Shown piece by piece: positions 31,017 through 64,000 of a stretch of 64,000 nucleotides of DNA (its first letter is position 1; each line of letters begins with the position of its first letter). A program made the position numbers and the translations under genes. Below the pieces are notes generated by a model that was not told where the DNA came from, made no database searches, and saw only the letters and a list, made by a program, of their open reading frames with translations. The stretch lies in contig PLMN01000009.1 in the NCBI GenBank assembly GCA_003141555.1, positions 103,497-167,496 on the forward strand, in the 5' to 3' direction. The stretch is from Candidatus Aminicenantes bacterium. GTDB lineage: Bacteria; Acidobacteriota; Aminicenantia; Aminicenantales; UBA4085.

Positions 31017-31742
31017 ATGAAAGATCATTTTGAGATCATCCTTCTCCTCGGGCGTCCCGCTTCGGGGAAATCGGAAGTCATTGATTTTTTGAAAAAGACC
31101 CCGATTCCGGAACGATCGAAGCGCTATCACATCCGCGAGTTTGAGGAAATCGACGATTTCCCCATGCTGTGGACCTGGTTCGAGGAAGACGCCATCCTGG
31201 AAAAGATCCTGCACGAGCCGCGCGTCCACTCCGATGCCGAAGGCTATTTCCTCCATTCGTATCAGTGGGATCTGTTGATCGAACGCATCTCCATTGAATA
31301 CGGGAAGAAATTGCGCGACCCGGGCTATGCCGAGAAGATGACGACCCTGATCGAATTCAGCCGGGGCTCCGAGCACGGCGGCTACGAATCGGCCTTCCGC
31401 CACCTCTCGAAGGAAATCCTTGAAAAAGCCTGCATTCTCTATATCGACGTTCCCTATGAGGAATCCCTGCGCAAGAACCGCCGCCGCTTCAACCCGAGCC
31501 GGCCGGATTCGATCCTGGAGCACGGTCTTCCGGACAGCAAATTGGAGCGCTTGTACAAGGAGGTGGACTGGGGGCGGTTCAAGGGAAAAGACCCCGAATT
31601 CATCCATTTTTCCGGACGCAGGATCCCCTACGCGGTTTTCGACAACATGCCCGAAATCACCGACAAGCCCGACGTGCTGGGTGCCCGCCTGGAAAGCGCC
31701 CTGAACAAGCTGTGGTCCAACCGTCAGGAGGTCCGATCGTGA
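31017..31742 (+). CDS. P-loop NTPase, nucleoside/nucleotide-kinase-like fold
   Basis: Walker A GRPASGKS at the N-terminus; IEFSRG; lid-like RKNRRR. Confidence 0.7.
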   Translation: MKDHFEIILLLGRPASGKSEVIDFLKKTPIPERSKRYHIREFEEIDDFPMLWTWFEEDAILEKILHEPRVHSDAEGYFLHSYQWDLLIERISIEYGKKLRDPGYAEKMTTLIEFSRGSEHGGYESAFRHLSKEILEKACILYIDVPYEESLRKNRRRFNPSRPDSILEHGLPDSKLERLYKEVDWGRFKGKDPEFIHFSGRRIPYAVFDNMPEITDKPDVLGARLESALNKLWSNRQEVRS

Positions 31743-33106
31743 GCCTGCTCTCGCGCAACCCGGTCCATCATTCGGCCGCGTTCCGGCGCCGGCGTTTTCT
31801 GAACTGGTTCCCCCTGGGGTTGACCTATGCGACCATGTACATGGGCCGCTACAACTTCAACATTGTCAAGAACGACATCGGCGCCTTGTATCACCTGGAC
31901 AAAGCCCAGATGGGGCTGATCGCCACTCTTGGCTTCTGGACCTATGGGCTGAGCGTCCTCATCAACGGCCCGCTGGCCGACCGATTCGGCGGGCGCAAGG
32001 CGATCCTGATCGGAGCACTGGGGGCCGGGACGCTCAACCTGGGCGTCGGCCTGATGTTCTTCAACGGCTGGACGGGCCACGTCCTCTGGAACATGAGCTG
32101 GCTCTGGAGCCTGAACATGTATTTCCAGAGCTTCGGCGCGCTCTCCGTGGTCAAGGTCAACAGCACCTGGTTCCACGTGCGCGAGCGCGGCATCTTCGGC
32201 GGCATCTTCGGGATCATGATCTCGTCCGGCTATTTCCTGGCCACCACCGTCGGCTCGGTGCTGCTGGCCACCTTCGCCAACTGGAACGTCATCTGGTTCG
32301 TGCCGGCCGCGGCCATGGTCGTGATGTTCCTGGTCGACCTGGTCCTGGTGCGCAACCGCCCCAGCCATGCCGGATACGCCGACTTCGACACCGGCGACGG
32401 CTCCAACGCCCACCTGGCCGAGGACAAGCCGCTGGCCATCAAGGCTTTGCTGGCCAGGGTTTTCAGCAACCCGGTGATCATTTTCCTGATCTGCGCCGAA
32501 TTCTGCACCGGATTCGTCCGCCAGAGCGTGATGCTCTACTTCACCGAATACCTGGCCGAGGTCTATCACCTGCCGAAGACGAACGTGCTCTTCTGGTGGA
32601 CCGGCGTGGCCTTCATGCTGGGCGGGATCTTCGGCGGCCTGTTGTGCGGGTGGATGAGCGACAATCTGTTCCAGTCCCGGCGCCCGCCCGTGGCCTTCTT
32701 CTTCTATCTGGTCCAGGTGGTCATGCTGGCCCTGCTGGGCTTCAGCCTGGGCCGCGGCACGTGGCTCGGACAGCTCTGGGCGGTCGTTCTGCTGGGCCTG
32801 ACGGCCATGTTCATCTTCGGCGTCCATGGGATGCTTTCGGGAACCGCCTCCATGGACTTCGGCGGCCGCAAGGCGGCGGCCACGGTGGCCGGATTGCTCG
32901 ACGGCGTGCAATATGTCGGCAGCGGTTTGACCGGCTTCGGATTGGGCTGGGTGCTGAAGACCTACGGCTGGGACGGCGTCGCCGCCGCGGGCCATGCTCC
33001 CGCGAATGCCTGGATCTGGGTGGTCTGCATCATCCCCTTCAGCCTGGTGGGGGCCTTCATCATGACCCGCATCTGGAAGGCCAAACCCAGCTCCGCGGCT
33101 CATTGA
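31739..33106 (+). CDS. MFS transporter, organophosphate:Pi antiporter (GlpT/UhpT)-like
   Basis: Y.GRYNF, GPLADRFGGRK, WF..RERG, GWMSD....RR; GTGA overlap with the upstream gene. Confidence 0.85.
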   Translation: MSLLSRNPVHHSAAFRRRRFLNWFPLGLTYATMYMGRYNFNIVKNDIGALYHLDKAQMGLIATLGFWTYGLSVLINGPLADRFGGRKAILIGALGAGTLNLGVGLMFFNGWTGHVLWNMSWLWSLNMYFQSFGALSVVKVNSTWFHVRERGIFGGIFGIMISSGYFLATTVGSVLLATFANWNVIWFVPAAAMVVMFLVDLVLVRNRPSHAGYADFDTGDGSNAHLAEDKPLAIKALLARVFSNPVIIFLICAEFCTGFVRQSVMLYFTEYLAEVYHLPKTNVLFWWTGVAFMLGGIFGGLLCGWMSDNLFQSRRPPVAFFFYLVQVVMLALLGFSLGRGTWLGQLWAVVLLGLTAMFIFGVHGMLSGTASMDFGGRKAAATVAGLLDGVQYVGSGLTGFGLGWVLKTYGWDGVAAAGHAPANAWIWVVCIIPFSLVGAFIMTRIWKAKPSSAAH

Positions 33107-33146
33107 CGAACGGCGGGCGCCGCCGAATAATGCCCCCCCTGAGGGC

Positions 33147-33752
33147 CTAGAATCCCTTGCGGCTGTTGTAGACCGTTCCCCGCCGACCTTTGTAGAGCTC
33201 CAAGACGGCGACGGCTTCGGCGCGCAAGCGGCCACCTTCGACCTCGATCCCGCGGTTCGACAGCTCCTGCGGCCAAGCCGCGGGCAGCGGCCCTTCGTCG
33301 AAGCCCAGGATCGAGGTCACGTCGACGGCCGTCGCGCCGTAGACGAGCTTCGTGACGCCCGACCATAAGACGGCGCCCAGGCACATCAAACAGGGTTGAG
33401 AGCTGGTCAGCAGCTCGGTGGGAAGGGCGGCGTCATGGCCCAGGTCCCAGTGCCCCAGGCGCTTCTGGGCGAAGGCGATGGCCATGATCTCCGCATGGGC
33501 CGGCGACAAGGTCAGCGGTTCGACGCGGTTGACCCCGGCGGCCAGCAGCCGCCCGCTCGAGGCGGCGAAGACCCCGGCCGCGAACGGCCCGCCGCTCTCC
33601 TCCTCGACGTTTCTCCGCGACAGCCCGATGACCCAGCGCAGGCGCTCTTCGGGATCGGGAAGGACGATGTTCCGGCCGGACGTCATGTCCTCGAGCCACG
33701 CAGGCAGGGTCAGCAGGACGCCGTCCGCCGGATGAGAGGCTTTATTCATCAC
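33147..33752 (-). CDS. Zn-dependent nucleoside/nucleobase deaminase (guanine deaminase-like, CDA fold)
   Basis: GGPFAA, HAE, PCLMC and GFDEG motifs. Confidence 0.85.
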   Translation of the reverse strand: MMNKASHPADGVLLTLPAWLEDMTSGRNIVLPDPEERLRWVIGLSRRNVEEESGGPFAAGVFAASSGRLLAAGVNRVEPLTLSPAHAEIMAIAFAQKRLGHWDLGHDAALPTELLTSSQPCLMCLGAVLWSGVTKLVYGATAVDVTSILGFDEGPLPAAWPQELSNRGIEVEGGRLRAEAVAVLELYKGRRGTVYNSRKGF

Positions 33753-33887: not shown

Positions 33888-33920
33888 CAACTCCCGATTC
33901 TTCGAAAAAGGGCGCCTGAC

Positions 33921-34139
33921 ATGCAAATACGAGTCAACAGCCAAATGATCGAGATCTTCGCCGGAGCCACGGTCAAGGATGTCCTGCGCAAATACTCCCG
34001 CGAGGAATGGAAGCGCGTCCGGAGCGGCGAGAATACGGTCAGGGACGGGCAAGGCCACGAGGTCGGCCTGGACGGCGAGCTCGGCGGCGGCGAAGAGCTG
34101 TTCATCAAACCCCGCGCCGCCGCGGAGCCCCGCTCATGA
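33921..34139 (+). CDS. Small beta-grasp (ThiS/ubiquitin-like) protein lacking terminal Gly-Gly
   Basis: MQIRVN...EI..GATVKDVL...L.GGEELFI; ATGA-coupled to the nucleotidase. Confidence 0.55.
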   Translation: MQIRVNSQMIEIFAGATVKDVLRKYSREEWKRVRSGENTVRDGQGHEVGLDGELGGGEELFIKPRAAAEPRS

Positions 34140-35668
34140 GACGCGTCGGCTTCGCCTCCCTTCCGATCGTCCTGGTCTTCGCCGCTCTTATCGGCGCATC
34201 GGCGACATGGGCGACGTCTTCGACGCCGGCGACGACCAGACCGTCTTTGACGGGCGAGTCGTCTGCGACAACCAGGCCGGCTCAACCGGCCGAGTCGCAT
34301 GTCGTCATATTCCATACCAACGACGTTCACGGCAGGATCGATAACTTCGCCAAGGTCGCGGCGATCCTCGATGCCGAGAGGAAGACCGGCGCCGACGTCT
34401 TTTTCTTTTCCGCCGGCGACAATTTCACCGGCGATCCGGTCATCGACCGCTACGACCCGCCCGGCGAGCCGATCGTGGAGCTGCTCGACCGCCTGCACGT
34501 CGACGTCATTTCCATCGGCAACCACGAGTTCGATTACGGACTCGAGGCGGTCCGCAAGCTGACGGCCCGCTTCCGCACGGTCTCGGCCAACATCGAAACC
34601 AAGGGCCTGCTTCCGGGGCTGCAGCCGTATATCGTCCTGACCGCCAAGGACGGGATCAAGATCGTCGTCTTCGGAATCATCCAGATCGAACCCGGCAACG
34701 GCCTGCCCTCGACCCATCCCGACAAGGTCAAGGGCCTGAGCTTCAGCGAGCCGCTGGCCAAGGCCCTGGAGCTGAAGAATCTCCGCGCCCAGGGTCAGAT
34801 CTTCGTCGGATTGACCCATATCGGCTTCGACCAGGACCTTCTCTTGGCCAAGGAGATGCCGGAGATCGACGTGATCATCGGCGGCCATTCCCATACGCGC
34901 GTCGACCCCGCGGAAACCGTCAACGGCGTGCTGGTCGCCCAAGCGGGAGCCGAAAACCAGTTCCTGGGCCGCATCGACCTGCTGCTCAGGGACGGCAAAG
35001 TGGTCGAAAAGAAAGGCCGGCTGATCGATTTGAGCAAGGTCCGGGACGAGGACCCGGAAATCAAGGCCCTGATCGCCAAGTTCCATCAGAGCCCGGCGAT
35101 GGCCCGCGTCATCGCCCATGCTCCTGTGGAAATCACCGGCAAGAACGCCCTGGGGAGCCTGATGACCGACGCCATCTGCAAGATGCACGGCCTGGACATC
35201 GCCTTCCAGAACAACGGCGGCATCCGGATCAACCGCCTGCCCCGGGCCATCACCCTCAATGACGTGTACACCCTCGATCCGTTCGGCAACCAGATCGTCC
35301 GCATCGATATGACCCCGGACGAAATCCGCGGCCTGATCTGGAGCTCGTGCGAAAGGCGGCATGACATCGATCTGCAGGTCTCGGGAATATCCTATTTCGT
35401 CCGGGACGAAGGAGTTCTCCGGCTCCAGGACATCGAGCTTCGCCGTCCGGATGGGTCCCCGCTGCCGGAAGACCGGACCTACAAGGTCGGATTGTCCAGC
35501 TACATCGCCAGCTCCTACCAATTCGCCCACAAGGACCCCGGCCGGACGCTGGGAATCACGACCGCCGAGGCCCTGATCAGCTACTTGGAGAGCAGCCCGG
35601 ACTTGAGCGTTTACCGCGAAGTGCAGCGGGCGCACTATCAGAAATCCGCCGGATCCCCCCGGGATTGA
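34136..35668 (+). CDS. Secreted bifunctional metallophosphatase / 5'-nucleotidase
   Basis: HTNDVHG, AGD, GNHEFDYG, LTH.G, GGHSH, N.GGIR and PFGN motifs; signal peptide. Confidence 0.92.
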   Translation: MRRVGFASLPIVLVFAALIGASATWATSSTPATTRPSLTGESSATTRPAQPAESHVVIFHTNDVHGRIDNFAKVAAILDAERKTGADVFFFSAGDNFTGDPVIDRYDPPGEPIVELLDRLHVDVISIGNHEFDYGLEAVRKLTARFRTVSANIETKGLLPGLQPYIVLTAKDGIKIVVFGIIQIEPGNGLPSTHPDKVKGLSFSEPLAKALELKNLRAQGQIFVGLTHIGFDQDLLLAKEMPEIDVIIGGHSHTRVDPAETVNGVLVAQAGAENQFLGRIDLLLRDGKVVEKKGRLIDLSKVRDEDPEIKALIAKFHQSPAMARVIAHAPVEITGKNALGSLMTDAICKMHGLDIAFQNNGGIRINRLPRAITLNDVYTLDPFGNQIVRIDMTPDEIRGLIWSSCERRHDIDLQVSGISYFVRDEGVLRLQDIELRRPDGSPLPEDRTYKVGLSSYIASSYQFAHKDPGRTLGITTAEALISYLESSPDLSVYREVQRAHYQKSAGSPRD

Positions 35669-35686: not shown

Positions 35687-36256
35687 ATGGCTCAGCTCTA
35701 TTTCCGCTACTCGACCATGAACGCCGGCAAGTCTACCGAGATCCTCAAGATCGCCCACAACTACGAGGAGCAGAACAAGCACGTCCTCCTGTTCACCCCG
35801 GCCCTCGACGACCGATTCGGCCGCGGCCAGATCACCTCGCGGATGGGCTTCCAGCGCGAGGCGCAGATCATCGACGCCGGCACCGACATGCTCGGCCTGG
35901 CCCGGGAGGCCAAGCCCGATTGCTTGCTGGTCGACGAGGGCCAGTTCCTGACCCGCGCCCAGGTGATCCTCTTGACCCGCATCGTCGACGAGCTGAACAT
36001 CCCGGTCATCGTCTACGGCCTGAAAAACGACTACCGCAACCGCCTCTTCAGCGGGAGCGAAGCGCTCCTCCTCCTCGCCGACAAGATCGAGGAAGTGAAA
36101 GCCGTCTGCTGGTACTGCACCAAGAAGGCGACCATGCTCCTCAAGCTCAAGGACGGCCGGCCGGTGGGCGAAGGCCCCCAGATCGAGATCGGCGGCAACG
36201 ACAAGTACATCTCGGTCTGCCGCAAGTGCTACGGGCAGAAGCTGGAGATCAAGTAG
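35687..36256 (+). CDS. tdk: Thymidine kinase
   Basis: [30 protein letters not shown]; Zn-site CxxC pairs. Confidence 0.95.
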
Positions 36257-36325: not shown

Positions 36326-37516
36326 ATGGCTAAAACCGAAATCGACCGCGTCTTCCTGATCGTTCTCGATTCCGTGGGCGTCGGCAGCCTGCCCGATGCC
36401 GCCGCATACGGCGACGAAGGGGCCGACACCCTGGGCCACATCGCCGAGCGCCTCGGCGGATTGAAGCTGCCCCATCTGGCGGCGTTCGGGTTGGGGAACA
36501 TCCTCCCTCTCCCGGGAGTCCCCCCCGCCCCGGCTCCGCGGGCCTCCTGGGGACGCATGGCCGAAATGGCGCGCGGCAAGGATACCCTGGCCGGCCACTG
36601 GGAGATGATGGGCCTCCCCCTGGACAAGCCGTTTTCCCTGTTCCCCCAGGGGTTCCCGCCGGAGCTGCTCTCCGAATTCAAGCGGCGGACGGGGGCGGCC
36701 GGCATCCTGGGCAACAAGGCCGCCTCGGGCACGGAGATCATCGCCGAGCTCGGAGCCGAACACGTGCGCACCGGCTTCCCCATCGTTTACACCTCGGCCG
36801 ACAGCGTGTTCCAGATCGCGGCGCACGAGGACGTCATCCCCCTCGTGGAGCTCTACGAGATGTGCCGGCAGGCGAGAACTCTCTGCGACGCTTGGCTGAT
36901 CGGCCGGGTCATCGCCCGGCCCTTTGTCGGCCGGCCCGGGAATTTCAGCCGCACGGCCAACCGCCGCGACTTTTCGATGCGCCCGCCCGGAAAAACGGCG
37001 TTGGACATCCTCCAAGAGGGCGGATGGACCGTGACGGGCATCGGCAAGATCGAGAACATCTTCGCCGGGCAGGGCATCAGCCGCTCGCGGCCCAGCCACG
37101 ACAATGCCGAAGGGATGAGGCTGGTGCGCGAGGAAGCGGCGGCCGCGGGACGGGGATTGATCTTCGCCAACCTGGTCGATTTCGACATGCTCTACGGCCA
37201 CCGCAACGACGTCGCCGGCTACGGGGCGGCCCTGGAGGCGTTCGATCGCGAGCTCGGCGGCCTGCTGCCCGCGCTCGGCCCCCGCGACCTGCTGATCATC
37301 ACGGCCGACCATGGCTGCGATCCGACCTATCCCGGCACCGACCACACCCGGGAATACGTCCCCCTCCTGGTCTACGGCCCGGATCTTCCGGCCCGGCCGC
37401 TCGGCGTGCGGGGCACGTTCGCCGACGTCGGCGCGTCCGTCTTGGACGCGTTCGGATTGAAACCCGTTTTTCCCGGAGCGAGCTTTATGCCCGAAATACG
37501 CTCCGCCCGGGCCTGA
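36326..37516 (+). CDS. deoB: Phosphopentomutase
   Basis: [54 protein letters not shown]. Confidence 0.96.
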
Positions 37517-37525
37517 GGAGGCAGC

Positions 37526-38347
37526 ATGGATCTCTACGAGCGCATCACGGAAGCGGCCGGCTTCATCAAGTCGAGGGATCCCCGGATTCCCCAGGTCGGG
37601 GTGGTCTTAGGCTCGGGGCTGGGCATTTTCGCCGAATCGGTCGCCGAGCCGGTCATCCTCCCTTATGTCGATATCCCCCACTTCAAAAAGGCGGGGGTGG
37701 CCGGCCACGCCGGCCGGCTGGTGCTGGGCAGGGTCGGCCCGGCCTCCGTCGCCGTCCTGCAGGGCCGCATCCACTATTATGAAGGCCATGAGATCGGGGA
37801 GGTCGTCTTCCCCCTGCGCGTTCTGGCCGGGCTGGGCATACGCAGCCTGCTGCTGACCAACGCCGCCGGGGGAATCAACCGCGAGTTCAAGTCCGGGGAT
37901 CTCATGATCATCCGCGACCACCTCAACCTGACGGGCCTCAACCCGCTGCGCGGGGTCAACGACGAGCGCCTCGGGCCCCGCTTCCCGGACATGAGCGCCG
38001 CCTACGACCCGGCCTTCCAGGAGATCATCGCCGCAGCGCTCGTGGCGGACGGCCGCCCGGCGCGCCGCGGGGTCTATGCCGGCCTGATCGGGCCGTCTTA
38101 CGAAACCCCGGCCGAAATCCGCATGCTCGCGACCCTGGGGGCCGACGCGGTGGGTATGTCCACCGTTTCCGAGGCCATCTGCGCCCGCCACCTGGGACTG
38201 CGCCTGGCGGGCATTTCCTGCATCACCAATCTGGCCGCGGGCATCTCGGCGACCCCCCTCAGCCACCGGGAAGTGACCGAGACCGGCGAACGGGTGGAAG
38301 CCGATTTCATCCGTCTGCTGAACCAGGTCGTCCCCCGGATGGCCTGA
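37526..38347 (+). CDS. punA: Purine-nucleoside phosphorylase (trimeric PunA/XapA type)
   Basis: LGSGLG, QGR.HYYEG, TNAAGG, GPSYETPAE, VGMSTV, ITNLAAG. Confidence 0.93.
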   Translation: MDLYERITEAAGFIKSRDPRIPQVGVVLGSGLGIFAESVAEPVILPYVDIPHFKKAGVAGHAGRLVLGRVGPASVAVLQGRIHYYEGHEIGEVVFPLRVLAGLGIRSLLLTNAAGGINREFKSGDLMIIRDHLNLTGLNPLRGVNDERLGPRFPDMSAAYDPAFQEIIAAALVADGRPARRGVYAGLIGPSYETPAEIRMLATLGADAVGMSTVSEAICARHLGLRLAGISCITNLAAGISATPLSHREVTETGERVEADFIRLLNQVVPRMA

Positions 38348-38351: not shown

Positions 38352-38386
38352 AAAAAAAAGCCCCCCGGCCGTTCGGCCGGGGGGCT
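38352..38386 (-). terminator. Rho-independent terminator (U-tract on the minus strand) between convergent punA and TonB receptor
   Basis: AGCCCCCCGGCC-GTTC-GGCCGGGGGGCT preceded by an A8 run. Confidence 0.85.
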
Positions 38387-38425
38387 GTAAAAAACGTATT
38401 CTTTGAGGTCGGCCTAGGGCTTACC

Positions 38426-41572: not shown

Positions 41573-41738
41573 CAAATATACCCTCCAATAATATAGATCA
41601 AGGGAGATAATATTATAGGAAAAGAGGAAAATCAACCTGAATGTGAAAGAATTTTTTCATCAATATCTCCAACCTGCGCCTGAATAAATAAAAAACGATT
41701 TTTTTGCCTCGCCACGGCCGTTGTGCTATCCTGTCGCC

Positions 41739-42407
41739 ATGAAGAGAAAGCCGCTGATCATCGGGGTTGCCGGCGGAACGGCCTCGGGGAAGACCACGAT
41801 TGCCAATGCCATCATGGAGTCCATCAACCATCCCCAGATGGTGGTAATCCAGCACGACTCCTATTATAAAGACGTCAGCCATATGCCCTTGGTCGAGAGG
41901 GCCAAGATCAATTTCGACCATCCCGACGCCCTGGAAACCGATCTGATGGTTCGCCATCTGCGGGAGCTGATCGCCGGCCGCTCGATCGAAATGCCGGTCT
42001 ATGATTTCTCCACCCATACCCGCCTGTCCAAGGGGATCGTCAAGAACCCGGCCAAAGTGATCATCCTCGAGGGGATCCTGATCTTTTGCGAACAGGCCCT
42101 CCGCGAGCTGATGGACGTCAAGATCTTCGTGGACACGGACAGCGACCTGCGCTTCATCCGCCGGCTGAAGCGCGATATCCAGGAGCGCCAGCGCAGCCTG
42201 GAGTCGGTGATCGGCCAATACCTCGGAACGGTGCGGCCCATGCACATCGCCTTCGTCGAGCCGAGCCGCAAGTACGCCGACATCATCATCCCCGAGGGCC
42301 ACAACCCGGTTTCCACGGCCCTGGTCGTCACCATGATCCGCCAGCGCCTGCGCAAGGGAAACCAGGAGGAGAGCTTCAAACCCGGCCCGGAGATCGCCCA
42401 TGGCTGA
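41739..42407 (+). CDS. udk: Uridine kinase
   Basis: IGVAGGTASGKTT, DSYYKD, NFDHPDA, EGIL, RFIRRL.RD..ER, PMH..FVEPS. Confidence 0.95.
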   Translation: MKRKPLIIGVAGGTASGKTTIANAIMESINHPQMVVIQHDSYYKDVSHMPLVERAKINFDHPDALETDLMVRHLRELIAGRSIEMPVYDFSTHTRLSKGIVKNPAKVIILEGILIFCEQALRELMDVKIFVDTDSDLRFIRRLKRDIQERQRSLESVIGQYLGTVRPMHIAFVEPSRKYADIIIPEGHNPVSTALVVTMIRQRLRKGNQEESFKPGPEIAHG

Positions 42408-47576: not shown

Positions 47577-47577
47577 G

Positions 47578-49636: not shown

Positions 49637-49646
49637 CGTCGCATCT

Positions 49647-56529: not shown

Positions 56530-57756
56530 ATGACCGAATTTCAATATCGCTGCAGCCGCTGCGGCCGGACCTACGGACGGGACGAGGTCCGCTACTTGTG
56601 TCCCGAGTGCGGCCGCGACTATGCGCCCGGGATGCCGCTCATCGGCGTGCTCGAGGTCGAATTCGACTACCGCGACATCGCCAGACGCTTCGATCGCTCC
56701 AGGCCCGACTGGGACCTCTTCTCTCCGGTGGAGTGGGAATATTTCCCCGTCTATCCGGCGGGCAACACGCCCTTCGCCCCGGCGCCGCGGCTGGGCGAAC
56801 GCCTGGGCCGGCCGCGGCTCTGGATCAAGAACGACGGCCTCAATCCCAGCGGCTCGCTCAAGGACCGCGCCTCGCTCCTCGTCGTGGCCGAGGCGGCGCG
56901 CCTCAACGAAACGAAGGTCGTCTGCGCCTCGACCGGCAATGCCGCGAGCTCCCTGGCCGCCGTCTGCGCCGCCGCCGGCCGCCGGGCCGTCATCTTCGTC
57001 CCCCAGTCGGCGCCCCGGGCCAAGCTCATCCAGATGCTGATCTGCGGCGCCCGCGTCATTCCGGTGCGCGGCAGCTACGACGACGCCTTCCGGTTATCCC
57101 TTGAATACACGCAGCTGCGCGGCGGCCTGAACCGCAACACCGCTTATCACCCGCTGACGATCGAGGGCAAGAAGACCGCCGGCCTGGAGATTTTCGCCCA
57201 GAACGGGTTGCGCGTTCCCGATGCCATTCTGGTGCCCGTGGGCGACGGCGTCATCATCAGCGGTATTTACAAGGCCTTCCACGACCTGCGCGCCGCCGGG
57301 CTCTGCGAGCATCTGCCGCGGCTCGTCGCCGTGCAGGCCGAGACCTCGGCCGCGATCCATGACTACATCGTCAGCGGGATCTTCCGTCCGGCGGTCTCCC
57401 CCACGACCATCGCCGATTCGATTTCCGTCTCCGTGCCGAGCAACCCGGACTTGGCCCGCCGCGCCGTGCTGGAGAGCGGCGGGTTTTCGCTCACGGTCAG
57501 CGACGAGCGCATCCTGGAGGCGCAGGCGCTGCTGGCCGGCCGGACGGGGGTTTTCGCCGAGCCCGCCGCGGCGGCGGCTGCAGCCGCCCTCCTCTCCGAC
57601 GAAGCCCGCCAACGGCTCGATCCCGATTGGCAGGTCGTCCTCCTGGTCACCGGCCACGGATTGAAAGACATCGAAGCTCCGCTTTCGCGCTTACGCATTC
57701 CCGAGGCGGTGCCGGCCGATTTCGCGGCGCTGCCCGAAGACATGCCGGAGAATTAG
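56530..57756 (+). CDS. Threonine synthase-like PLP (fold type II) enzyme with N-terminal Zn ribbon
   Basis: CSRC/CPEC; NPSGSLKDR (PLP Lys), ASTGNA, EGKKT, PVGDG, TGHGLKD. Confidence 0.85.
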   Translation: MTEFQYRCSRCGRTYGRDEVRYLCPECGRDYAPGMPLIGVLEVEFDYRDIARRFDRSRPDWDLFSPVEWEYFPVYPAGNTPFAPAPRLGERLGRPRLWIKNDGLNPSGSLKDRASLLVVAEAARLNETKVVCASTGNAASSLAAVCAAAGRRAVIFVPQSAPRAKLIQMLICGARVIPVRGSYDDAFRLSLEYTQLRGGLNRNTAYHPLTIEGKKTAGLEIFAQNGLRVPDAILVPVGDGVIISGIYKAFHDLRAAGLCEHLPRLVAVQAETSAAIHDYIVSGIFRPAVSPTTIADSISVSVPSNPDLARRAVLESGGFSLTVSDERILEAQALLAGRTGVFAEPAAAAAAAALLSDEARQRLDPDWQVVLLVTGHGLKDIEAPLSRLRIPEAVPADFAALPEDMPEN

Positions 57757-59112
57757 ATGAAGACCCTGGTGCGCGGCGGCACGATCTATTCGCGGGGGCA
57801 AGCGGCTTCCGGAGACGTGCTGATCGAGGACGGCGTCATCGTCGCCGTCGGAGACTGCCGCGGATTGACCGGAGGCGCGCGCATCGTCGAGGCCGGCGGT
57901 TGCCATGTGCTGCCGGGGCTCATCGACCTGCACGTCCATATCGACGACACCATCGGCCGCTTTCGCCTGGCGGACACCTGGGCAAGCGCGAGCCGCACCG
58001 CGGCTGCCGCGGGGATCACCACCCTCGGCGGCTTCATCACCCAAAGGCCGGAAGAGTCGCTCTCCTCGGCCGTCGAGCGCGCCTTCGAACGGGCCGCCGG
58101 CCGCTCCTTCTGCGACTACCTCTGGCACCTGACGCCGACCCGCTTTGCCGCGGACGATTGGACGGAAATCGAGCGGCACCTCGAGTCGGGCTGGCTCACC
58201 TTCAAGTTCTACACGACCTACCGCGAGATCGGCCTCTACACGTCCTACGAGCGTCTGGCCGAGATCGCCGAGCGCCTGTCGCCGGGCGGGGCGCGCCTCC
58301 TGGTCCACGCCGAGGACGAGGATATCCTGGCCGAGGCACGGGCTTTGATCGGCAACGGGCCGCTTCGCGCGGCGGACCACGGCCGTCTGCGACCGCCCGA
58401 GGCCGAGCTGCGGGCGGTCGAGCTCGTGGCCGAAATCGCGGATGAGACCGGGGCCTGGTTCCACATCGTCCACGTTTCGACGCCGGAGGCGGCGGAGGCC
58501 ATCGGCCCCGGCCGCGACGGGGCGCGCCTCACTTGCGAGACCGCGCCGCACTATCTTTTTCTCGACGACTCCTGGCTGAAGCGCCCCGACGGCCACCGCT
58601 GGCTGTGCACTCCGCCGCTGCGCGACGCGGCCCGCGCCGCCCGCCTGCGCGAGATGGCGCGCGAGGGCGCCTTCGACACCTTCGCCACCGACCACTGCCC
58701 CTACACCCTCGAGGACAAGGACAGCGGCCGAGGGGACCTGCGCTCCGCGCCGATGGGCTTGGCCGGGATCGGGGCGATGCCCCGGCTGATCTTCGCCCTG
58801 GATCGGGAGCTCCCGGAGCAGGCCTTCGCCAGGATGAGCCTCCATCTGGCGGATAATCCCGCGCGCCTGGCCGGCCTCGAGGGACGCAAGGGCGCGCTGG
58901 CCCCGGGCTTGGACGCGGACGTGGCCGTGTTCGAGGTGGCGGACCGCGAAGAGCCCTTGCATTCGGGAGGCGTCGGCAGCCCGGAAACGTACCCCGGTTT
59001 CCACAGCCCGTTGTGGCTGCGCCATCTTTTCCTGCGCGGCCGGCCGCTGGTCTCCGACGGCGCATGGAGCGGGACCGATCCGGCCCCGGGTAGGTGCCTA
59101 TGGACGATCTGA
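57757..59112 (+). CDS. Cyclic amidohydrolase (dihydropyrimidinase/hydantoinase HyuA-like)
   Basis: PGLIDLHVH, FKFYTTY (carbamylated Lys), VHAE, HIVHVS, ETAPHYL, PPLR, TDHCPY. Confidence 0.85.
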   Translation: MKTLVRGGTIYSRGQAASGDVLIEDGVIVAVGDCRGLTGGARIVEAGGCHVLPGLIDLHVHIDDTIGRFRLADTWASASRTAAAAGITTLGGFITQRPEESLSSAVERAFERAAGRSFCDYLWHLTPTRFAADDWTEIERHLESGWLTFKFYTTYREIGLYTSYERLAEIAERLSPGGARLLVHAEDEDILAEARALIGNGPLRAADHGRLRPPEAELRAVELVAEIADETGAWFHIVHVSTPEAAEAIGPGRDGARLTCETAPHYLFLDDSWLKRPDGHRWLCTPPLRDAARAARLREMAREGAFDTFATDHCPYTLEDKDSGRGDLRSAPMGLAGIGAMPRLIFALDRELPEQAFARMSLHLADNPARLAGLEGRKGALAPGLDADVAVFEVADREEPLHSGGVGSPETYPGFHSPLWLRHLFLRGRPLVSDGAWSGTDPAPGRCLWTI

Positions 59113-61346
59113 AGGACAAGGCCTGGAGGAACGACGCCGCGGCCAAGGTAACCGGGCGCGCCCGCTACACCGATGACCTCAAGCTGCCGGGCATGCTCCA
59201 TGCCGTTCCCGTCTACAGCGAATTCGTCCACGCCAGGCTGATCGAGGTCGACTCGGCGGCCGCGGCGAAATCGCCCGGCGTCGTGCGCATCATCACCGCG
59301 CGCGACGTCCCCGGCGTCAACCGGTGCGGACAGATCCTGAAGGACCTCCATGTTCTGGCCGACGACAAGATCCGCTACAACGGCGACGTCGCGGCCGTGG
59401 TCGTAGCCGAAACTCGGGCCCAGGCCGTCGCCGCCGCGCGGCGCGTGCGCGTGCTCGCCGCGCCGTGGCCGGAGGTCCTCGATCCCGAGCAGGCCCTGCT
59501 TCCGGGCGCGCCGCTCGTCCACGAGGAGCACGGCTCGAACCTCATCCACCGCCACGTGATCCGACGCGGCGACATCGACCGCGGTTTCGCTGAGTCGGCC
59601 CACATCATCGAACAGGAGTTCCGCACGCCTTTCGTCGAGCACGCCTATCTCGAGCCCGAGGCCGCACTCTGCCGCGTGCGCGGCGACGGCATCGTCGAGG
59701 TGCGGGGCAGCATGCAGCACCCCTATTCCACCCGCCGTTTCGTCTCCGAATTCCTCGGCTTGCCCCTGGCCCGCGTCGAGGTCGTGGGCACGCCCATGGG
59801 CGGCGGCTTCGGCGGCAAGGACGACACGGCGGCGCTCGTCTGCGCCCGAACCGCCCTCGCCGCGCTCCTGACCGGGCGGCCGGTCAAAATGACCTACGAC
59901 CGCGAGTGGTCGATGCGCGAGAGCTACAAGCGGCATCCTTATCTTATGCGCTACCGCATGGGCGTCGGTGCCGACGGCCTCATCAAAGCCGTGTACGTCC
60001 GCATGGTGGCCGACGGCGGCGCCTACTGCTCGGTCTCGCCCTGGGTGACCTGGCGCTCGACCGTGCAGTGCTGCGGCCCCTACGTCGTCCCAAACGTGGA
60101 CGGCGAGGTCTCGAGCGTCTACACGAATAACGTCTTCACCGGCGCCATGCGCGGCTTCGGCTCGCCGCAGGTGAATTTTGCGATCGAGCAGCTCGTCGAG
60201 ATGGCAGCCGAGAAGGCGGGCCTGTCCGGCGTCGAATTCCGCCGGCGGAACATGGTCCGCCAGGGCAGCACGACGATCACGGGCCAGGTCCTCGAGGGCC
60301 ACGTCGTCAGCCTGTCCCAGGTCTTCGACCGCGTGCTGGCCGAGAGCGGCTACGAAGAGAAGCTCAAGCGCGCGTCCCGCGGCCGGGGCGAGGACGATTA
60401 TTACGGCATCGGCCTGGCCCTGAGCTACCGGGGCGTCAGCCTCGGCGCCGAGGGTACGGATTTCTGCGCCGCCGTGGTCAGCGTCCAGTATGACGGCTCG
60501 GTCCTTCTCGAGACCGGGGTCCACGAAAACGGCCAGGGCGCCGAGAGCGCCATGATCCTGATCCTGGCCGAAGAGCTTGGCGTGGAGCGCGGCCGCATCG
60601 TCTATCGCCGCTCGTCGACCTCGAGCGTCCCCGACAGCGCCACGACGGTCGCTTCGCGGGGGACGATCATGGGCGGCGGGGCCGTCAGCCGCGCTGCAGC
60701 CGCAGTGCGCTTGCAGATGGCGGGCGCCATCGCCGCCGAGCTCGGCTGCGCGCCCGAAGAAGTTCGATTTGCCGGCGGCCGCCTGACCGCGCCGAACGGT
60801 AAGAGCGTCGATTTCACCGAAGCGGCGCGGCGCCTCTACCGCGACCAGAAATATCCCTACGCGCTCGGCGTTTTCCCCGCCCCGCACGTGACCTGGGACG
60901 AGCACACGGGCCAGGGCAAAGCCTATTTCACCTGGGTCTATGGCTGCCAGGCCGTGGAATTGACGGTCGGCCGCCGAACCGGCCGGATCAAGCTCCTCAA
61001 CGCCTGGGCCGCACACGATGTCGGCCGGGCCGTCAACAGCGCCGCGCTCCTCGGCCAGTTCTATGGCGGCATGGCCATGGGTGCCGGCTATGGCCTGTTC
61101 GAGGAACTGGCGATGAAAGACGGCCATCTGACTTCCCTCAACTACGACACCTACCGCATCCCGCGCGCGACCGACATGCCCGAGATGACGGCCATCATCC
61201 TCGAAAACCGCGATCCCCTGTCGCCCTCGGGCGCGAAGAGCATCGGCGAGCCGGCCAACGAACTCATGGCGCCGGCCATCGCCAACGCCTATTTCCACGC
61301 CACGGGGCAAAGGCGCTTCGAGCTCCCCGTCGGGAGGGTCAGATGA
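59100..61346 (+). CDS. Xanthine dehydrogenase-family molybdopterin-binding subunit
   Basis: KVTGRARYTDD, EHAYLEPE, GGGFGGK, AMRGFGSPQ, GQG, ASR, KSIGE. Confidence 0.92.
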   Translation: MDDLKDKAWRNDAAAKVTGRARYTDDLKLPGMLHAVPVYSEFVHARLIEVDSAAAAKSPGVVRIITARDVPGVNRCGQILKDLHVLADDKIRYNGDVAAVVVAETRAQAVAAARRVRVLAAPWPEVLDPEQALLPGAPLVHEEHGSNLIHRHVIRRGDIDRGFAESAHIIEQEFRTPFVEHAYLEPEAALCRVRGDGIVEVRGSMQHPYSTRRFVSEFLGLPLARVEVVGTPMGGGFGGKDDTAALVCARTALAALLTGRPVKMTYDREWSMRESYKRHPYLMRYRMGVGADGLIKAVYVRMVADGGAYCSVSPWVTWRSTVQCCGPYVVPNVDGEVSSVYTNNVFTGAMRGFGSPQVNFAIEQLVEMAAEKAGLSGVEFRRRNMVRQGSTTITGQVLEGHVVSLSQVFDRVLAESGYEEKLKRASRGRGEDDYYGIGLALSYRGVSLGAEGTDFCAAVVSVQYDGSVLLETGVHENGQGAESAMILILAEELGVERGRIVYRRSSTSSVPDSATTVASRGTIMGGGAVSRAAAAVRLQMAGAIAAELGCAPEEVRFAGGRLTAPNGKSVDFTEAARRLYRDQKYPYALGVFPAPHVTWDEHTGQGKAYFTWVYGCQAVELTVGRRTGRIKLLNAWAAHDVGRAVNSAALLGQFYGGMAMGAGYGLFEELAMKDGHLTSLNYDTYRIPRATDMPEMTAIILENRDPLSPSGAKSIGEPANELMAPAIANAYFHATGQRRFELPVGRVR

Positions 61347-61825
61347 AGCCCGCCGCCCCTCCCGCCCTCGTCGTCAACGGCCGCGGCATGCGCGTCTCCG
61401 CCGCGGATAAGCGCAAGAACCTCCTGACGTTCCTCCGCGAGGACCTGGACCTGACCGGCGCCAAGCGCGGCTGCGGCATCGGCCAATGCGGGGCATGCAC
61501 CGTCCTCGCCGACAACCGGCCGCTGCGCTCCTGCCACGCGCTCGTGGCCGATGTCCTCGGCCGCAGCCTGACGACCATCGAGGGGCTGGCCGCGCCGGAC
61601 GGCAGCCTGCATCCGTTGCAGCAGGCGTTCATCGATCACGGCGCGATCCAGTGCGGCTTCTGCACGCCGGGGATGGTCCTCACCGCCCACGCCTTCCTGC
61701 TCAAGCACCCCGCGCCGACCCGCGAGGAAGCTCGCAAGGCCATCGGCTCCAACCTTTGCCGCTGCACTGGCTACCAGCAGATCATCGACGCCATCCTGGC
61801 CGCCGCCCCCCACTACAAGAAATAG
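61343..61825 (+). CDS. Xanthine dehydrogenase-family 2x[2Fe-2S] subunit
   Basis: GCGIGQCGACTV, SC, QCGFCTPG, NLCRCTGY. Confidence 0.94.
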   Translation: MKPAAPPALVVNGRGMRVSAADKRKNLLTFLREDLDLTGAKRGCGIGQCGACTVLADNRPLRSCHALVADVLGRSLTTIEGLAAPDGSLHPLQQAFIDHGAIQCGFCTPGMVLTAHAFLLKHPAPTREEARKAIGSNLCRCTGYQQIIDAILAAAPHYKK

Positions 61826-61834
61826 GAGTCATTC

Positions 61835-63037
61835 ATGAAGGATATCCCTCTCGACGCCGCACTGCGGGAGCTCGACGGATTGAAGGCCGATCTCAATCTC
61901 TCCAACCGCGATTTTCTGCTGACCTGGGAACACTCCCTGGCCGAGCTCCGTTCGGTCCTGCTCACGGCCCGCATCCTCCGCGCCCTCCACGACGCTGGAC
62001 GCTCCCTGCGCGTGTTCGACACGGGGCTCGCCGTCTCGATCTTCCGCGACCAGTCGACGCGCACCCGCTTCAGCTTCGCCTCGGCCGCGAGCGCCCTGGG
62101 GCTTACGGTCTCCGACCTCGACGAGACCAAATCGCAGATCGCCCACGGCGAGACCGTGCGCGAAACGGCCGTCATGATCTCCTTCCTGGCCGAGGCCATC
62201 GGCATCCGCGATGATATCTATCTCGGGGAGGGCGACCGCTACATGCGCGAGGTGGCTGCCGCCCTGCAGGAGGCACACGAGCAAGGCGTGCTTTCCCGGC
62301 GGCCGGCGGTGATCAACCTCCAGTCCGACCTCGACCACCCCACGCAGACGCTGGCCGACCTGCTGCATCTCGAGGACCGCTTCGGCGGGCTCGACAAGTT
62401 GCGGGGCCGGAAGTTCGTCATCTCCTGGGCCTATTCACCGAGCTACGGCAAGCCGCTCTCCGTGCCGCAGGGCCTGATCGGCCTCTTCCCCCGCTTCGGG
62501 ATGGACGTGACGCTCGCTTATCCCGAAGGCTACGACCTGCTGCCCGAGGTCGTGGAACTGGCTGAAAAACAGGCGGCGGCCGCGGGCGGCGGCGCGCTCC
62601 GCATCAGCCACGACATGGCCGAGGCTTTCGACGACGCCGAGATCGTCTATCCCAAGTCCTGGGCGCCGATGCAAGTCGCGCGGCGGCGGACCGAGCTGCT
62701 GAAGAAAGGCGACAAAGCCGGGCTGCAGGCGCTCGAGAAGGAGTGCCTGGCGGAGAACGCGAAGCACGCGGACTGGGAGTGCGATGCGGCCAGGATGAAG
62801 CGCACGGCCAAAGGCGCCGCGCTCTACATGCACTGCCTGCCGGCGGACATCAGCGGCGTGTCGTGCGAGCGGGGCGAGGTGAGCAAGGACGTTTTCGAGC
62901 GCTATCGCCTCGAGACCTACCGCGAGGCGGCCTGGAAGCCCTTCGTCATCGCCGCCCTGATTTTCCTGACGCGCGTCCCGGATCCGCAGGCGGCGCTGCG
63001 GCGGCTGGTCGAGAACGGCGCGCCGCGCATCCGTTGA
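61835..63037 (+). CDS. ygeW: Knotted carbamoyltransferase YgeW
   Basis: FRDQSTRTRFS, SQIAHGETVRETA.MISF, HPTQ, WAYSPSYGKPLSVPQG, YPKSW, YMHCLPADI. Confidence 0.93.
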   Translation: MKDIPLDAALRELDGLKADLNLSNRDFLLTWEHSLAELRSVLLTARILRALHDAGRSLRVFDTGLAVSIFRDQSTRTRFSFASAASALGLTVSDLDETKSQIAHGETVRETAVMISFLAEAIGIRDDIYLGEGDRYMREVAAALQEAHEQGVLSRRPAVINLQSDLDHPTQTLADLLHLEDRFGGLDKLRGRKFVISWAYSPSYGKPLSVPQGLIGLFPRFGMDVTLAYPEGYDLLPEVVELAEKQAAAAGGGALRISHDMAEAFDDAEIVYPKSWAPMQVARRRTELLKKGDKAGLQALEKECLAENAKHADWECDAARMKRTAKGAALYMHCLPADISGVSCERGEVSKDVFERYRLETYREAAWKPFVIAALIFLTRVPDPQAALRRLVENGAPRIR

Positions 63038-63045
63038 GGTATGAC

Positions 63046-64000
63046 ATGTCGAAAATCATCAAGCATATGAACGAGGCGGTCATCAAGAAGACGGCGGCCC
63101 GCTGCCGCGAGCGGGGCATCGTCATCCCCACGTTCGCCGAGCTCCGCGATCCGGAGAAGATTCCGGCGGCGATCAAGAAGCGACTGCCGGCCGTCGGCAT
63201 GGACGACATCAATCCGCTCAACCTCTTCCGCATCAGCTGGAAGAACGATGTCCGCTCGGGGCTCTACGGACCGGTCAATGCCCTCGAGCTTCCGCCCGCG
63301 GTCACCGGCGTGGCGGCCCGGATCGTCGGCTTGGTCGGCAAGCATTTTCCCACCGGCGCCCACAAGGTCGGCGCCGCCTTCGGCTGCCTGGTGCCGCGCC
63401 TCGTCTCGGGCGAGTTCGATCCCCAGGTCCACAAGGCGGTCTGGCCGTCGACCGGCAACTACTGCCGCGGCGGGGCGTTCGACTGTGCCCTGCTCGGCTG
63501 CCGGGCCGTGGCCATCCTCCCGGAAGAGATGTCCCGGGAGCGCTTCGAGTGGCTGAAGGCCATCGGCGCCGAGGTCATCGCCACCCCCGGTTGCGAGTCC
63601 AACGTCAAGGAGATCTACGACAAGTGCGACGAGCTTGCCGCCGATCCCTTGAACATGATCTTCAACCAGTTCGCCGAGTTCGGCAATCCGATCTTCCACT
63701 ACCAGGTCACCGGCCCCGCGGCCGAGGAGGCTTATCCGGCGCGCCGGAAGGACAAGGCGCGCCTGGCGGCGTTCATCAGCGCGACCGGATCGGCCGGGAC
63801 CATCGCCGCCGGCGACTATCTCAAAACCCTGCACCCGCAGCTGCGCATCGTCGCCACCGAGGCGAAGCAGTGCCCGACGCTCTTTCTGAACGGCTTCGGC
63901 GGCCACCGCATCGAGGGCATCGGCGACAAACACGTGCCCTGGGTGCACAACGTGCGGAACACGGACGCCGTGGCCGCGATCGACGACGAGGACTGCCTGC
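63046..64000 (+). CDS. PLP-dependent fold type II enzyme (CysK/TrpB-superfamily, purine-cluster associated); runs off the window end
   Basis: Manual translation MSKIIKHMNEAVIKK...NPLNLFRISWKN...FPTGAHKVGAAFGCL...WPSTGNYCRGG...TPGCESNVKEI...ATGSAGT...GGHRIEGIGDKH; SD GAGGT. Absent from the ORF track because it has no stop in the window. Confidence 0.85.
   Translation, partial: MSKIIKHMNEAVIKKTAARCRERGIVIPTFAELRDPEKIPAAIKKRLPAVGMDDINPLNLFRISWKNDVRSGLYGPVNALELPPAVTGVAARIVGLVGKHFPTGAHKVGAAFGCLVPRLVSGEFDPQVHKAVWPSTGNYCRGGAFDCALLGCRAVAILPEEMSRERFEWLKAIGAEVIATPGCESNVKEIYDKCDELAADPLNMIFNQFAEFGNPIFHYQVTGPAAEEAYPARRKDKARLAAFISATGSAGTIAAGDYLKTLHPQLRIVATEAKQCPTLFLNGFGGHRIEGIGDKHVPWVHNVRNTDAVAAIDDEDCL

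Follow-up and report, generated by a model that had tools for sequence, protein, structure and literature searches.

Escherichia coli takes up and degrades nucleosides with the products of scattered genes (Tsx, NupG/NupC, deoCABD, udp, cdd, and add), and its route across the outer membrane is the passive channel Tsx (PMC11658791; this and the other papers cited here were available to us in part). The 64,000-nucleotide stretch of DNA analyzed here (the window), which covers contig positions 103497-167496 of a metagenome-assembled genome (MAG) of an uncultured anaerobe in the Aminicenantia (Acidobacteriota; 3.79 Mb, 97% complete), contains an island of 26 consecutive genes that follows the same cytoplasmic logic, with the families NupG, DeoB, DeoC, pyrimidine and purine nucleoside phosphorylases, cdd, and add, but gathers them in a single block and has a TonB-dependent receptor of the Oar type in the position of Tsx. 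The island further differs from the E. coli system by an aldehyde:ferredoxin oxidoreductase (AOR) gene after deoC and by the lack of a CytR/DeoR-type regulator. These features, together with the gene neighborhoods described below, suggest that the island probably lets anaerobic Aminicenantia live on exogenous nucleosides or nucleotides, with the Oar-type receptor as the point of entry at the outer membrane. Among named relatives of the genome, 'Candidatus Aminicenantes' MAGs are the nearest. The sequencing runs carrying the stretch were labeled as peat metagenomes (habitat shares under 0.2 in the survey of sequencing runs were left unused), and extracellular nucleic acids form a large pool of carbon, nitrogen, and phosphorus in peat and sediments. 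The island would offer a complete set of genetic instructions by which an abundant anaerobe, so far uncultured, could ferment nucleic acids.

The two nearest analogues in print resemble the island at the outer membrane. The rus polysaccharide utilization locus (PUL) of Bacteroides thetaiotaomicron encodes SusC/D homologues, two ribokinases, a nucleoside hydrolase, and a permease (bioRxiv 10.1101/574913), and shares with the island a TonB-dependent outer-membrane transporter (TBDT) encoded together with enzymes and a permease for ribose- or nucleoside-derived nutrients. However, rus has a SusD partner, a regulator, and a hydrolase with ribokinases, whereas the island has phosphorylases, DeoB, DeoC, and base catabolism, no SusD, and a receptor of the Oar rather than the SusC type. 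The SusC/D pair of rus was not required for the diet-specific competition phenotype (bioRxiv 10.1101/574913). In the Pus systems of Flavobacterium, TonB-dependent transporters co-localize with phosphoesterases and inner-membrane organophosphate transporters, their substrates being unknown (PMC8115612); the resemblance is closest for the triads of kinase, major facilitator superfamily (MFS) transporter, and receptor, and for the Ignavibacteria loci with genes for nucleotide pyrophosphatase/phosphodiesterase (NPP) and PhoD, both described below. The Pus systems belong to the Pho response and are SusCD-based, whereas catabolic enzymes dominate in the island. In the accessible text of these two reports, TonB-dependent import of nucleosides or nucleotides is proven for neither rus nor Pus (bioRxiv 10.1101/574913, PMC8115612). 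A search of the literature found no such transporter in print, and a 2024 review of TBDTs mentions, in the part available, only Tsx for nucleosides (PMC11658791). The receptor clade and the island were likewise not found described; the supplementary neighborhood tables of PMC12507026 and PMC8115612 might list similar clusters.

An earlier note on this DNA had called the locus PUL-like, which holds loosely. The locus works like a substrate-utilization locus with its own TonB-dependent transporter, but it is not a PUL in the strict sense because SusD, polymer-degrading enzymes, and a regulator are all missing from its 26 genes. The SusD family had no match among the 26 island proteins or the flanking open reading frames (ORFs) scanned, and no lipoprotein gene follows the receptor. 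The Pfam scan identified no nuclease in the island, and a search of the 97%-complete genome found neither Endonuclease_NS nor SNase, other nuclease families not having been searched.

The island is almost certainly real and directed to nucleosides and purines. Pfam and NCBIfam scans, extended beyond the window, place it between 31017 and about 64500 (approximately 33 kb), with the last gene passing the window end by about 500 bases; real genes were told from shadow ORFs by their high GC content at third codon positions, and NCBIfam scores were read in bits against the cut-off of each model. Its recurrence in many genomes puts the arrangement far beyond chance. All functions listed in the earlier note were recovered, namely the Oar-like receptor divergent from udk, a secreted 5'-nucleotidase, NupG and a GlpT-like MFS transporter, three deaminases (add, cdd, and a protein of the cytidine deaminase [CDA] fold), two phosphorylases (PNP and pdp), deoB and deoC, the salvage genes tdk, udk, and a purine-type phosphoribosyltransferase (PRT), and genes for purine ring breakdown. 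The count is 26 rather than about 27, the AOR was missing from the list, and the first gene encodes a P-loop protein without a family instead of a recognizable nucleotide enzyme. The first part of the island holds the P-loop protein and MFS transporter genes on the plus strand, the CDA-fold deaminase gene on the minus strand, and 5'-nucleotidase, tdk, deoB, and PNP on the plus strand; in the middle, the receptor (minus) is followed by udk, PRT, and add (plus) and by cdd, deoC, AOR, pdp, yjjG, and nupG (minus); and the end is a nine-gene plus-strand operon running from a GltD/PreA fusion through ssnA, ygeY, a pyridoxal phosphate (PLP) enzyme, a hydantoinase-like gene, the molybdenum and Fe-S subunits of a xanthine-dehydrogenase (xdh)-like enzyme, and ygeW to a second PLP enzyme.

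The receptor begins at 41572, that is, at M22 of the listed ORF, where a signal peptide opens (MKKLFVAV...), rather than at 41635 as assumed earlier. Matches to PF13620 (69 bits, residues 29-110) and PF25183 (200 bits, residues 237-984) give it the Oar-type architecture, with a carboxypeptidase-regulatory-like domain before the plug region and a barrel of the OMP_b-brl_4 type. By Pfam names this is also the make-up of Myxococcus xanthus Oar (a carboxypeptidase-regulatory-like N-terminal domain and a large barrel), and Ton dependence would be expected; M. xanthus Oar exports the protease PopC and was energized by the Ton system of E. coli (PMC11658791), whereas the context of the island receptor points to nutrient import. 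The AlphaFold2 model, built with 22 homologues, has a mean predicted local distance difference test score (pLDDT) of 72.8, with the barrel at 70-90, and is confident for the barrel and the N-terminal domain. Among the Foldseek matches listed from the Protein Data Bank (PDB; ranks 1-50), all were TonB-dependent transporters or complexes, led by FusA (E 1e-23) and YddB (E 1.5e-21). Pfam, the model, and Foldseek thus agree on a TBDT-type 22-strand beta-barrel. The plug stretch (residues ~112-242) is conserved in sequence across the 22 homologues, and PF07715 is precomputed for two homologues at 52-53% identity; a VTVTA stretch within these residues is presumably TonB-box-like. TonB machinery is encoded in the same genome (8 TonB_C and 3 ExbD matches over curated cut-offs, none inside the window), and the Tsx nucleoside channel was not found in this 97%-complete genome.

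To our knowledge, Acidobacteriota, Myxococcota, Ignavibacteria, and relatives encode very many Oar-type receptors, hardly any of which has been assigned a substrate; the receptor clade offers a clear, conserved, and testable genomic hint for an orphan receptor family. The homologues compared below belong to the same subfamily and are not random paralogues, because the other Oar-like genes of the source genome align to the receptor over its first 300 residues only, at 28-29% identity. In one genome of the family (G002, a 60%-complete MAG; C12:73337-76505), the receptor orthologue is split into pieces that contain in-frame TGA stops, amid island genes that seem intact; these pieces may be a decaying copy or assembly errors.

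The neighborhoods of the receptor were compared in relatives. Within the family of the source genome (f1), the receptor lies beside PNP-deoB-tdk-5'-nucleotidase, plus udk-PRT-add where that flank is present, with synteny in 5/5 genomes; in relative G019 the contig starts inside the receptor, leaving only the PNP side readable, and udk is on a different contig. Among metagenome loci at 62-87% identity, udk and/or PNP lay directly beside the receptor in 13/14 cases, the fourteenth (L049) being a 1.3-kb contig with no readable flank, and a locus from the genome collection (L001, best segment 69%) likewise showed the udk/receptor/PNP arrangement. The position between udk-PRT-add and PNP-deoB was common to every locus from the family or from metagenomes that reached 62% identity and had readable flanks. 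These first scans reach only relatives sharing 8-residue words, and the gap that they left between 62% and 44% identity was an artefact that the class-wide search closed. That search found a receptor match at E<=1e-100 in 63 of the 339 Aminicenantia genomes, distributed over families f15 (52/72), f4 (5/87), f10 (1/6), and f1 (4/26, source genome not counted). In families f4 and f15, each of the 21 class loci at 59-70% identity had udk, PRT, and/or PNP beside the receptor, and four of the 25 class loci examined, at about 50% identity, showed no link within 1.5-kb flanks. In a more distant set of 20 class loci (42-51% identity, compared with some 8 kb of flank at either end), the receptor adjoined nucleoside genes or the kinase-MFS pair in 15: the P-loop kinase, MFS transporter, and receptor followed one another in one orientation in seven, and PNP, deoB, udk, cdd, deoC, or pdp lay within 8 kb in eight. 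Receptor orthologue clusters at identities of at least 59% numbered more than 115. In a maximum-likelihood tree of 52 receptors, from which two partial sequences and one duplicate were omitted, the class sequences formed two well-supported clades, one of 28 rows, all in the udk/receptor/PNP context, and one of 18 rows with mixed, mostly nucleoside-related contexts.

Since the receptor stands beside varying subsets of one gene set despite repeated rearrangement, the link appears to be functional and kept by selection rather than simple hitch-hiking, and we consider it likely that the receptor functionally belongs to the island. The proposal of the earlier note, a dedicated system for exogenous nucleic-acid breakdown products of which the receptor is a part, agrees with this view. 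By contrast, it is improbable that the receptor merely travels with the island, having been captured and inherited along with it while serving some other purpose, whether exporting a protein like the Myxococcus Oar or importing peptides or proteins like FusA and YddB. The ferredoxin importer FusA and YddB are indeed its best fold matches, PopC is secreted by the Myxococcus Oar (PMC11658791), the receptor gene is flanked by a promoter-like site and a terminator of its own, and relatedness among the genomes inflates the synteny counts. A passenger would nevertheless not be expected to adjoin udk-PRT-add, PNP-deoB, cdd-deoC-pdp, or kinase-MFS in two clades and at least four families despite the rearrangements, and no candidate gene for a protein cargo is conserved beside it. 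Its presence and absence also track the island and the kinase. Among 61 relatives, the receptor was found in six, pdp in seven, and ygeW in six, in nearly the same genomes, and none of the three was found in the same-genus genome G001 (98% complete); in a smaller search, PNP was found in 3/28 relatives. Across the class, receptor and P-loop kinase occurred together in 55 genomes, the receptor only in 8, the kinase only in 11, and neither in 265, counts that are descriptive rather than a test because the genomes are kin. The island is an accessory element, acquired or lost as a unit.

What the receptor carries is a narrower question. The substrate would be a nucleoside, a nucleotide, or another organophosphate, and we lean slightly toward specific import of nucleosides and/or nucleotides; oligonucleotides, which had been proposed earlier, have no specific support. 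A phosphorylated substrate is plausible for the outer-membrane step in view of the arginines of the MFS transporter and the export of the 5'-nucleotidase. The transporter scored 178 bits with TIGR00881, below the cut-off of 407; its best solved relative is GlpT (1PW4, E 5e-18), with SLC37A4 also near, and it has arginines aligned to both positions of the GlpT phosphate-binding pair, which we take to be R45 and R269. The 5'-nucleotidase shows a Sec-type signal-peptide-like segment, MRRVGFASLPIVLVFAALIGASA, after M44 and no lipobox cysteine; its relatives align from residue 83-97 onward only, and its secretion, claimed earlier, is apparent once the start is moved to M44.

The kinase gene lies directly before the GlpT-like MFS gene in 12/12 loci in which the two genes were identified. 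The encoded protein (241 aa) carries a Walker A motif (GRPASGKS) and has 5521 homologues at E<=0.001, of which the best 120 are 72-100% identical, with Marinimicrobia labels on homologues at 73-74% identity. Its AlphaFold2 model (pLDDT 87.7) is that of a generic fold like the nucleoside monophosphate (NMP) kinases, with UMP-CMP kinase, adenylate kinase, APS kinase, deoxycytidine kinase, and thymidylate kinase as the best Foldseek matches in the PDB, at template modeling scores of about 0.5-0.6. A profile search against PDB sequences gave nothing useful, the only P-loop match having E 1.5, and a protein atlas gave leads only ('NadR/Ttd14 AAA', AAA_18/33). The analysis draws attention to these P-loop kinases as a large family of high conservation and unknown function, encoded together with a GlpT-like transporter. 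Speculatively, and with a rather low probability, intact NMPs might cross both membranes by TonB-driven passage through the receptor and phosphate exchange in the GlpT-like antiporter, and then be trapped through phosphorylation by the P-loop kinase. If so, this route would make dephosphorylation unnecessary and conserve the energy of the phosphate ester in an anaerobe short of energy. The receptor clade would then be the first TonB-dependent transporter family dedicated to nucleotides, and the kinases, which number in the thousands in uncultured anaerobes and lack a Pfam model, would represent a new type of nucleotide or nucleoside kinase.

The same transporter features also bear on an alternative in which the receptor and the kinase-MFS pair serve phosphorus scavenging, taking up phosphate esters generally, with nucleotides as one source and the link to nucleoside catabolism secondary. 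In the Ignavibacteria, homologues of the receptor (33% identity) had an NPP-type gene adjacent in 10/11 loci and a PhoD-like gene in 10/11, although these loci count as one lineage because they are close kin. Adjacent NPP-type and PhoD-like phosphodiesterases, an MFS transporter of the GlpT/UhpT type with both aligned arginines, a TPM phosphatase adjoining the receptor in class locus L085, and the induction of TonB-dependent transporters and SusCD-like 'Pus' complexes by phosphate depletion in Flavobacterium (PMC8115612) would all suit such a role. However, the commonest neighbors in the Aminicenantia are cytoplasmic catabolic and salvage enzymes (udk, PRT, add, PNP, and deoB) and not phosphatases, the island has no Pho-type regulator or PstS-like gene, and as a whole it is built to ferment sugar and purine rings. 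We therefore regard phosphorus scavenging as unlikely and retain nucleoside or nucleotide use as the preferred reading. As to gene order in the Ignavibacteria-type loci (L003-L011, L044-L048), the PhoD-like gene precedes the receptor, and the divergent operon consists of the NPP-type phosphodiesterase and two M16 peptidase genes.

The cytoplasmic enzymes come from well-known textbook families but depart from the E. coli pattern in two respects. The AOR gene sits between deoC and pdp and is kept directly after deoC in relatives where the flank is present; its true start lies near the deoC stop, with the family match beginning at residue 71 of the listed ORF. This arrangement suggests that AOR oxidizes the acetaldehyde formed by DeoC with reduction of ferredoxin, and the reduced ferredoxin could feed a reductive purine pathway. 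The reductive uric-acid or 2,8-dioxopurine pathway was described in 2025 (PMC12507026; bioRxiv 10.1101/2025.04.24.650524). Its cluster in E. coli and Clostridia comprises XdhD, YgfK or UacX, SsnA, HyuA, YgeY, YgeW/YqeA, and YgeX, and the island shares SsnA, YgeY, and YgeW, all over their cut-offs and in one operon with the xdh-like molybdenum enzyme and the hydantoinase-like protein. The xdh subunits, the PreA/GltD fusion, and the hydantoinase-like protein are all below specific cut-offs. Instead of YgfK or the short UacX, the operon encodes the 828-aa GltD/PreA fusion (PreA 181 bits and YgfK 151 bits, both below cut-offs), which stands where YgfK/UacX would, at the reductive dearomatization step (roles according to the accessible text of PMC12507026). 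The architecture of this fusion reductase is intermediate between E. coli YgfK and clostridial UacX. No YgeX-family lyase was recognized in the operon and no diaminopropionate ammonia-lyase match exceeded its cut-off; two other PLP enzymes are encoded there, and the threonine-synthase-like one is a possible stand-in for YgeX. A carbamate kinase gene lies on another contig of the genome. In the island the purine pathway is physically joined to genes for nucleoside uptake and cleavage, and Acidobacteriota are not among the phyla named for SsnA, the marker of the pathway, in the part of PMC12507026 available to us. The island would couple deoxyribose cleavage to a ferredoxin-reducing AOR and purines to a recently solved reductive uric-acid pathway.

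These metalloenzymes invite the thought that the receptor imports not a substrate but something that the xdh-like enzyme and AOR require, such as a pterin-type cofactor or a species of molybdenum, tungsten, or selenium. The island does encode a molybdenum hydroxylase and a tungsten-type AOR, the metal and cofactor TBDTs ZnuD, OprC, BtuB, and PqqU are among the fold matches, and a MobA/MocA-like nucleoside triphosphate (NTP) transferase is divergent from the receptor in three distant loci, once near xdh and ssnA. A cofactor role would fit poorly, however, with the seven loci in which only the kinase and MFS transporter precede the receptor and no metalloenzyme lies in the 8-kb flanks, with L086, L088, L094, and L097, where the receptor is paired with PNP-deoB or cdd-deoC-pdp and no xdh or AOR is found in the flank, or with the lack of an ABC-type (ATP-binding cassette) molybdate or tungstate transporter in the island; we consider it very improbable. 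The transferase gene of L095, L096, and L099 is of the molybdenum cofactor nucleotidyl-transferase type.

Our preferred reading, nucleoside and nucleotide use with the receptor as entry point, suggests the following sequence of steps. The receptor, energized by TonB-ExbBD encoded elsewhere, would take nucleotides and/or nucleosides into the periplasm, where the exported 5'-nucleotidase would convert nucleotides to nucleosides for putative import by NupG. In a second possible route across the inner membrane, the GlpT-like antiporter would take up an organophosphate, possibly an NMP or a pentose phosphate, for phosphorylation inside the cell by the P-loop kinase. In the cytoplasm, nucleosides would be deaminated by add, cdd, and the CDA-fold deaminase and cleaved by PNP and pdp to free bases and (deoxy)ribose-1-phosphate, which DeoB and DeoC would lead to glycolysis, while AOR would turn the acetaldehyde released by DeoC into acetate and reduced ferredoxin. 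Purine bases would be broken down by the xdh-like enzyme, followed by a variant of the 2,8-dioxopurine pathway, with pyruvate, ammonia, and carbamoyl phosphate as products, and from the last of these the carbamate kinase could form ATP; tdk, udk, and PRT would draw part of the flux into salvage.

Several observations weigh against this reading, and they concern the plug, transcription, descent, and the distant homologues. PF07715 was not detected in the receptor even at E 0.05, and the plug stretch was modeled poorly, with pLDDT below 50. The receptor forms a separate transcription unit with its own promoter-like site and a strong terminator. The TTGATT-type element of that site, which speaks for a functional receptor gene, is kept in 13/13 orthologous intergenic regions and is followed by a TATAAT-like run in 11/13, as read by eye rather than from a scored alignment. 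Comparing the chief promoter regions of the island, four in number, pair by pair for 16-mers that agree at 13 or more positions yielded no convincing shared operator and no common palindrome, only the word TTTGCCTCG common to the regions upstream of udk and the kinase and a similarity of the promoter -35 elements. An Rfam scan of 28000-64000 at E<=1 found no riboswitch, and no regulator gene, whether CytR or DeoR-type, is present among the 26 island proteins. Co-regulation of the receptor with the island is therefore without support. Furthermore, given the kinship of the genomes and the apparent movement of the island as a whole, much of the synteny is inherited and not independent; in family f1 the island is patchy, and the f1 receptors nest among those of f4 and f15. 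In the distant set, the neighbors were ssnA and xdh plus the MocA-like gene in one of the 20 loci, the MocA-like gene alone in two, and neither kind of link was present in two, one of which is a 5-kb contig. Homologues in Acidobacteriota outside the class (39% identity) had unrelated neighbors; the neighborhood check proposed in the earlier note is thus borne out within the Aminicenantia and extends neither to these nor to the Ignavibacteria. Nucleosides pass through porins in other bacteria because of their small size, and a TonB-dependent route is not obviously required. The Oar of Myxococcus, the only one studied, secretes a protease and is not a nutrient importer (PMC11658791). Finally, gene identities and gene linkage are what the analysis shows, and every transport step in the proposed sequence is putative.

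In line with a functional receptor gene, contigs assembled from peat and wetland RNA libraries span most of the receptor, with 0-8 differences per piece in the set X15, and also span pieces of the MFS transporter, 5'-nucleotidase, tdk, udk, PRT, add, nupG, AOR, and deoC genes. This cover is a record of presence in such libraries only, not of transcript levels or co-induction, and carry-over of DNA is possible, no silent control stretch having been compared. In X15 and X17 the receptor flanks had little or no RNA cover, which is not evidence of silence, and nothing was drawn from it. An adapter-like loose end at 41578 (X15) was too weak to be taken as a transcript start, and a weak Rfam match to ncS54 (38352-38411) was rejected as a small RNA, as it coincides with the terminator hairpin of the receptor.

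The coordinates of the island genes and of the signals flanking the receptor are given in Table 1.

Table 1. Genes of the nucleoside and purine island and signals flanking the receptor (positions in the window; paired bit scores are score versus model cut-off)
Feature	Position	Strand	Evidence and remarks
P-loop kinase-like protein, 241 aa	31017..31742	+	No Pfam/NCBIfam family; 3' end overlaps MFS start
MFS transporter, organophosphate:phosphate antiporter (GlpT/UhpT/PgtP) type	31712..33106	+	PF07690
CDA-fold deaminase, 201 aa; guanine or nucleoside deaminase possible	33147..33752	-	PF00383, PF14437; TadA match weak
Exported 5'-nucleotidase, UshA-like	34007..35668	+	PF00149 + PF02872; likely start M44, ~34136
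Thymidine kinase tdk	35687..36256	+	PF00265; NF003300 237 vs 195 bits
Phosphopentomutase DeoB	36326..37516	+	NF003766 535 vs 256 bits
Purine nucleoside phosphorylase PNP (PNP-I type)	37526..38347	+	NF006054 349 vs 218 bits
Terminator hairpin between convergent PNP and receptor	38359..38386	-	12-pair stem, 11 G-C pairs, then T run
Oar-type TonB-dependent receptor, 1048 aa	38426..41572	-	PF13620 + PF25183; start M22 of listed ORF
Receptor promoter-like site TTGATT-17-TATTAT	41607..41635	-	Sigma-70-like, 35 bases upstream of ATG
Uridine kinase udk	41721..42407	+	NF004018 291 vs 180 bits
Purine-type phosphoribosyltransferase, 188 aa	42400..42966	+	PF00156; HGPRT and XPRT matches weak
Adenosine deaminase add	42963..44207	+	PF00962 215 bits; NCBIfam models below cut-offs
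Nucleoside:H+ symporter NupG	44246..45538	-	PF03825 441 bits; TIGR00889 496 vs 446 bits
YjjG-type HAD (haloacid dehalogenase) pyrimidine 5'-nucleotidase	45508..46248	-	TIGR02254 188 vs 160 bits
Pyrimidine-nucleoside/thymidine phosphorylase pdp	46233..47669	-	TIGR02644 537 vs 409 bits
Aldehyde:ferredoxin oxidoreductase, tungsten-type AOR family	47867..49650	-	PF02730 + PF01314
Deoxyribose-phosphate aldolase DeoC	49647..50477	-	TIGR00126 266 vs 117 bits
Cytidine deaminase cdd, tetrameric type	50520..50921	-	TIGR01354 140 vs 114 bits
GltD-like FAD/NAD(P) + PreA/PydA-like FMN fusion with Fe-S clusters, 828 aa	51394..53880	+	Pfam domains
SsnA amidohydrolase	53881..55233	+	NF005540 485 vs 444 bits
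YgeY M20 hydrolase	55250..56518	+	NF009555 519 vs 321 bits
PLP fold-type II enzyme, threonine-synthase-like	56530..57756	+	PF00291; all NCBIfam matches below cut-offs
Cyclic amidohydrolase, hydantoinase/HyuA-like	57757..59112	+	TIGR02033 248 bits, below cut-off 393
Xanthine-dehydrogenase-family Mo subunit	59094..61346	+	PF01315, PF02738, PF20256; xdh models all below cut-offs
xdh-family 2Fe-2S subunit	61343..61825	+	PF00111, PF01799; xdh models all below cut-offs
Knotted carbamoyltransferase YgeW	61835..63037	+	NF005538 608 vs 453 bits
PLP enzyme, cysteine-synthase-like, 488 aa as listed; last island gene	63030..64000 and beyond	+	PF00291; weak cysK matches

No clean insertion site was definable in comparison with the island-less relatives G001 and G018, where the left gene at 27453-29252 is the only common flank; the neighbors of its homologue in these two genomes map to other contigs of the source genome. 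To the left of 31017 lie small unknown ORFs and genes unrelated to the island. A PfkB-family sugar kinase gene at 20401-21321, 10 kb to the left, matched ATP-dependent ribose-1-phosphate kinase and ribokinase best among the NCBIfam models, below cut-off. It is not evidence for a pentose-bisphosphate route, which is unlikely because RuBisCO was not found in the genome. Further left (1-5067 and 5396-17487), the window carries genes unrelated to the island for an RND (resistance-nodulation-division) efflux pump, with two AcrB-type genes and a membrane-fusion protein, a GH127 beta-L-arabinofuranosidase, a histidine kinase/response regulator pair, and two large PD40/WD40 propeller proteins. At its right end, just beyond the window, the island abuts a small defence-type block (L055, 1734-7571) encoding a GmrSD restriction endonuclease, a DNA methylase-like protein, and a PIN-domain protein.

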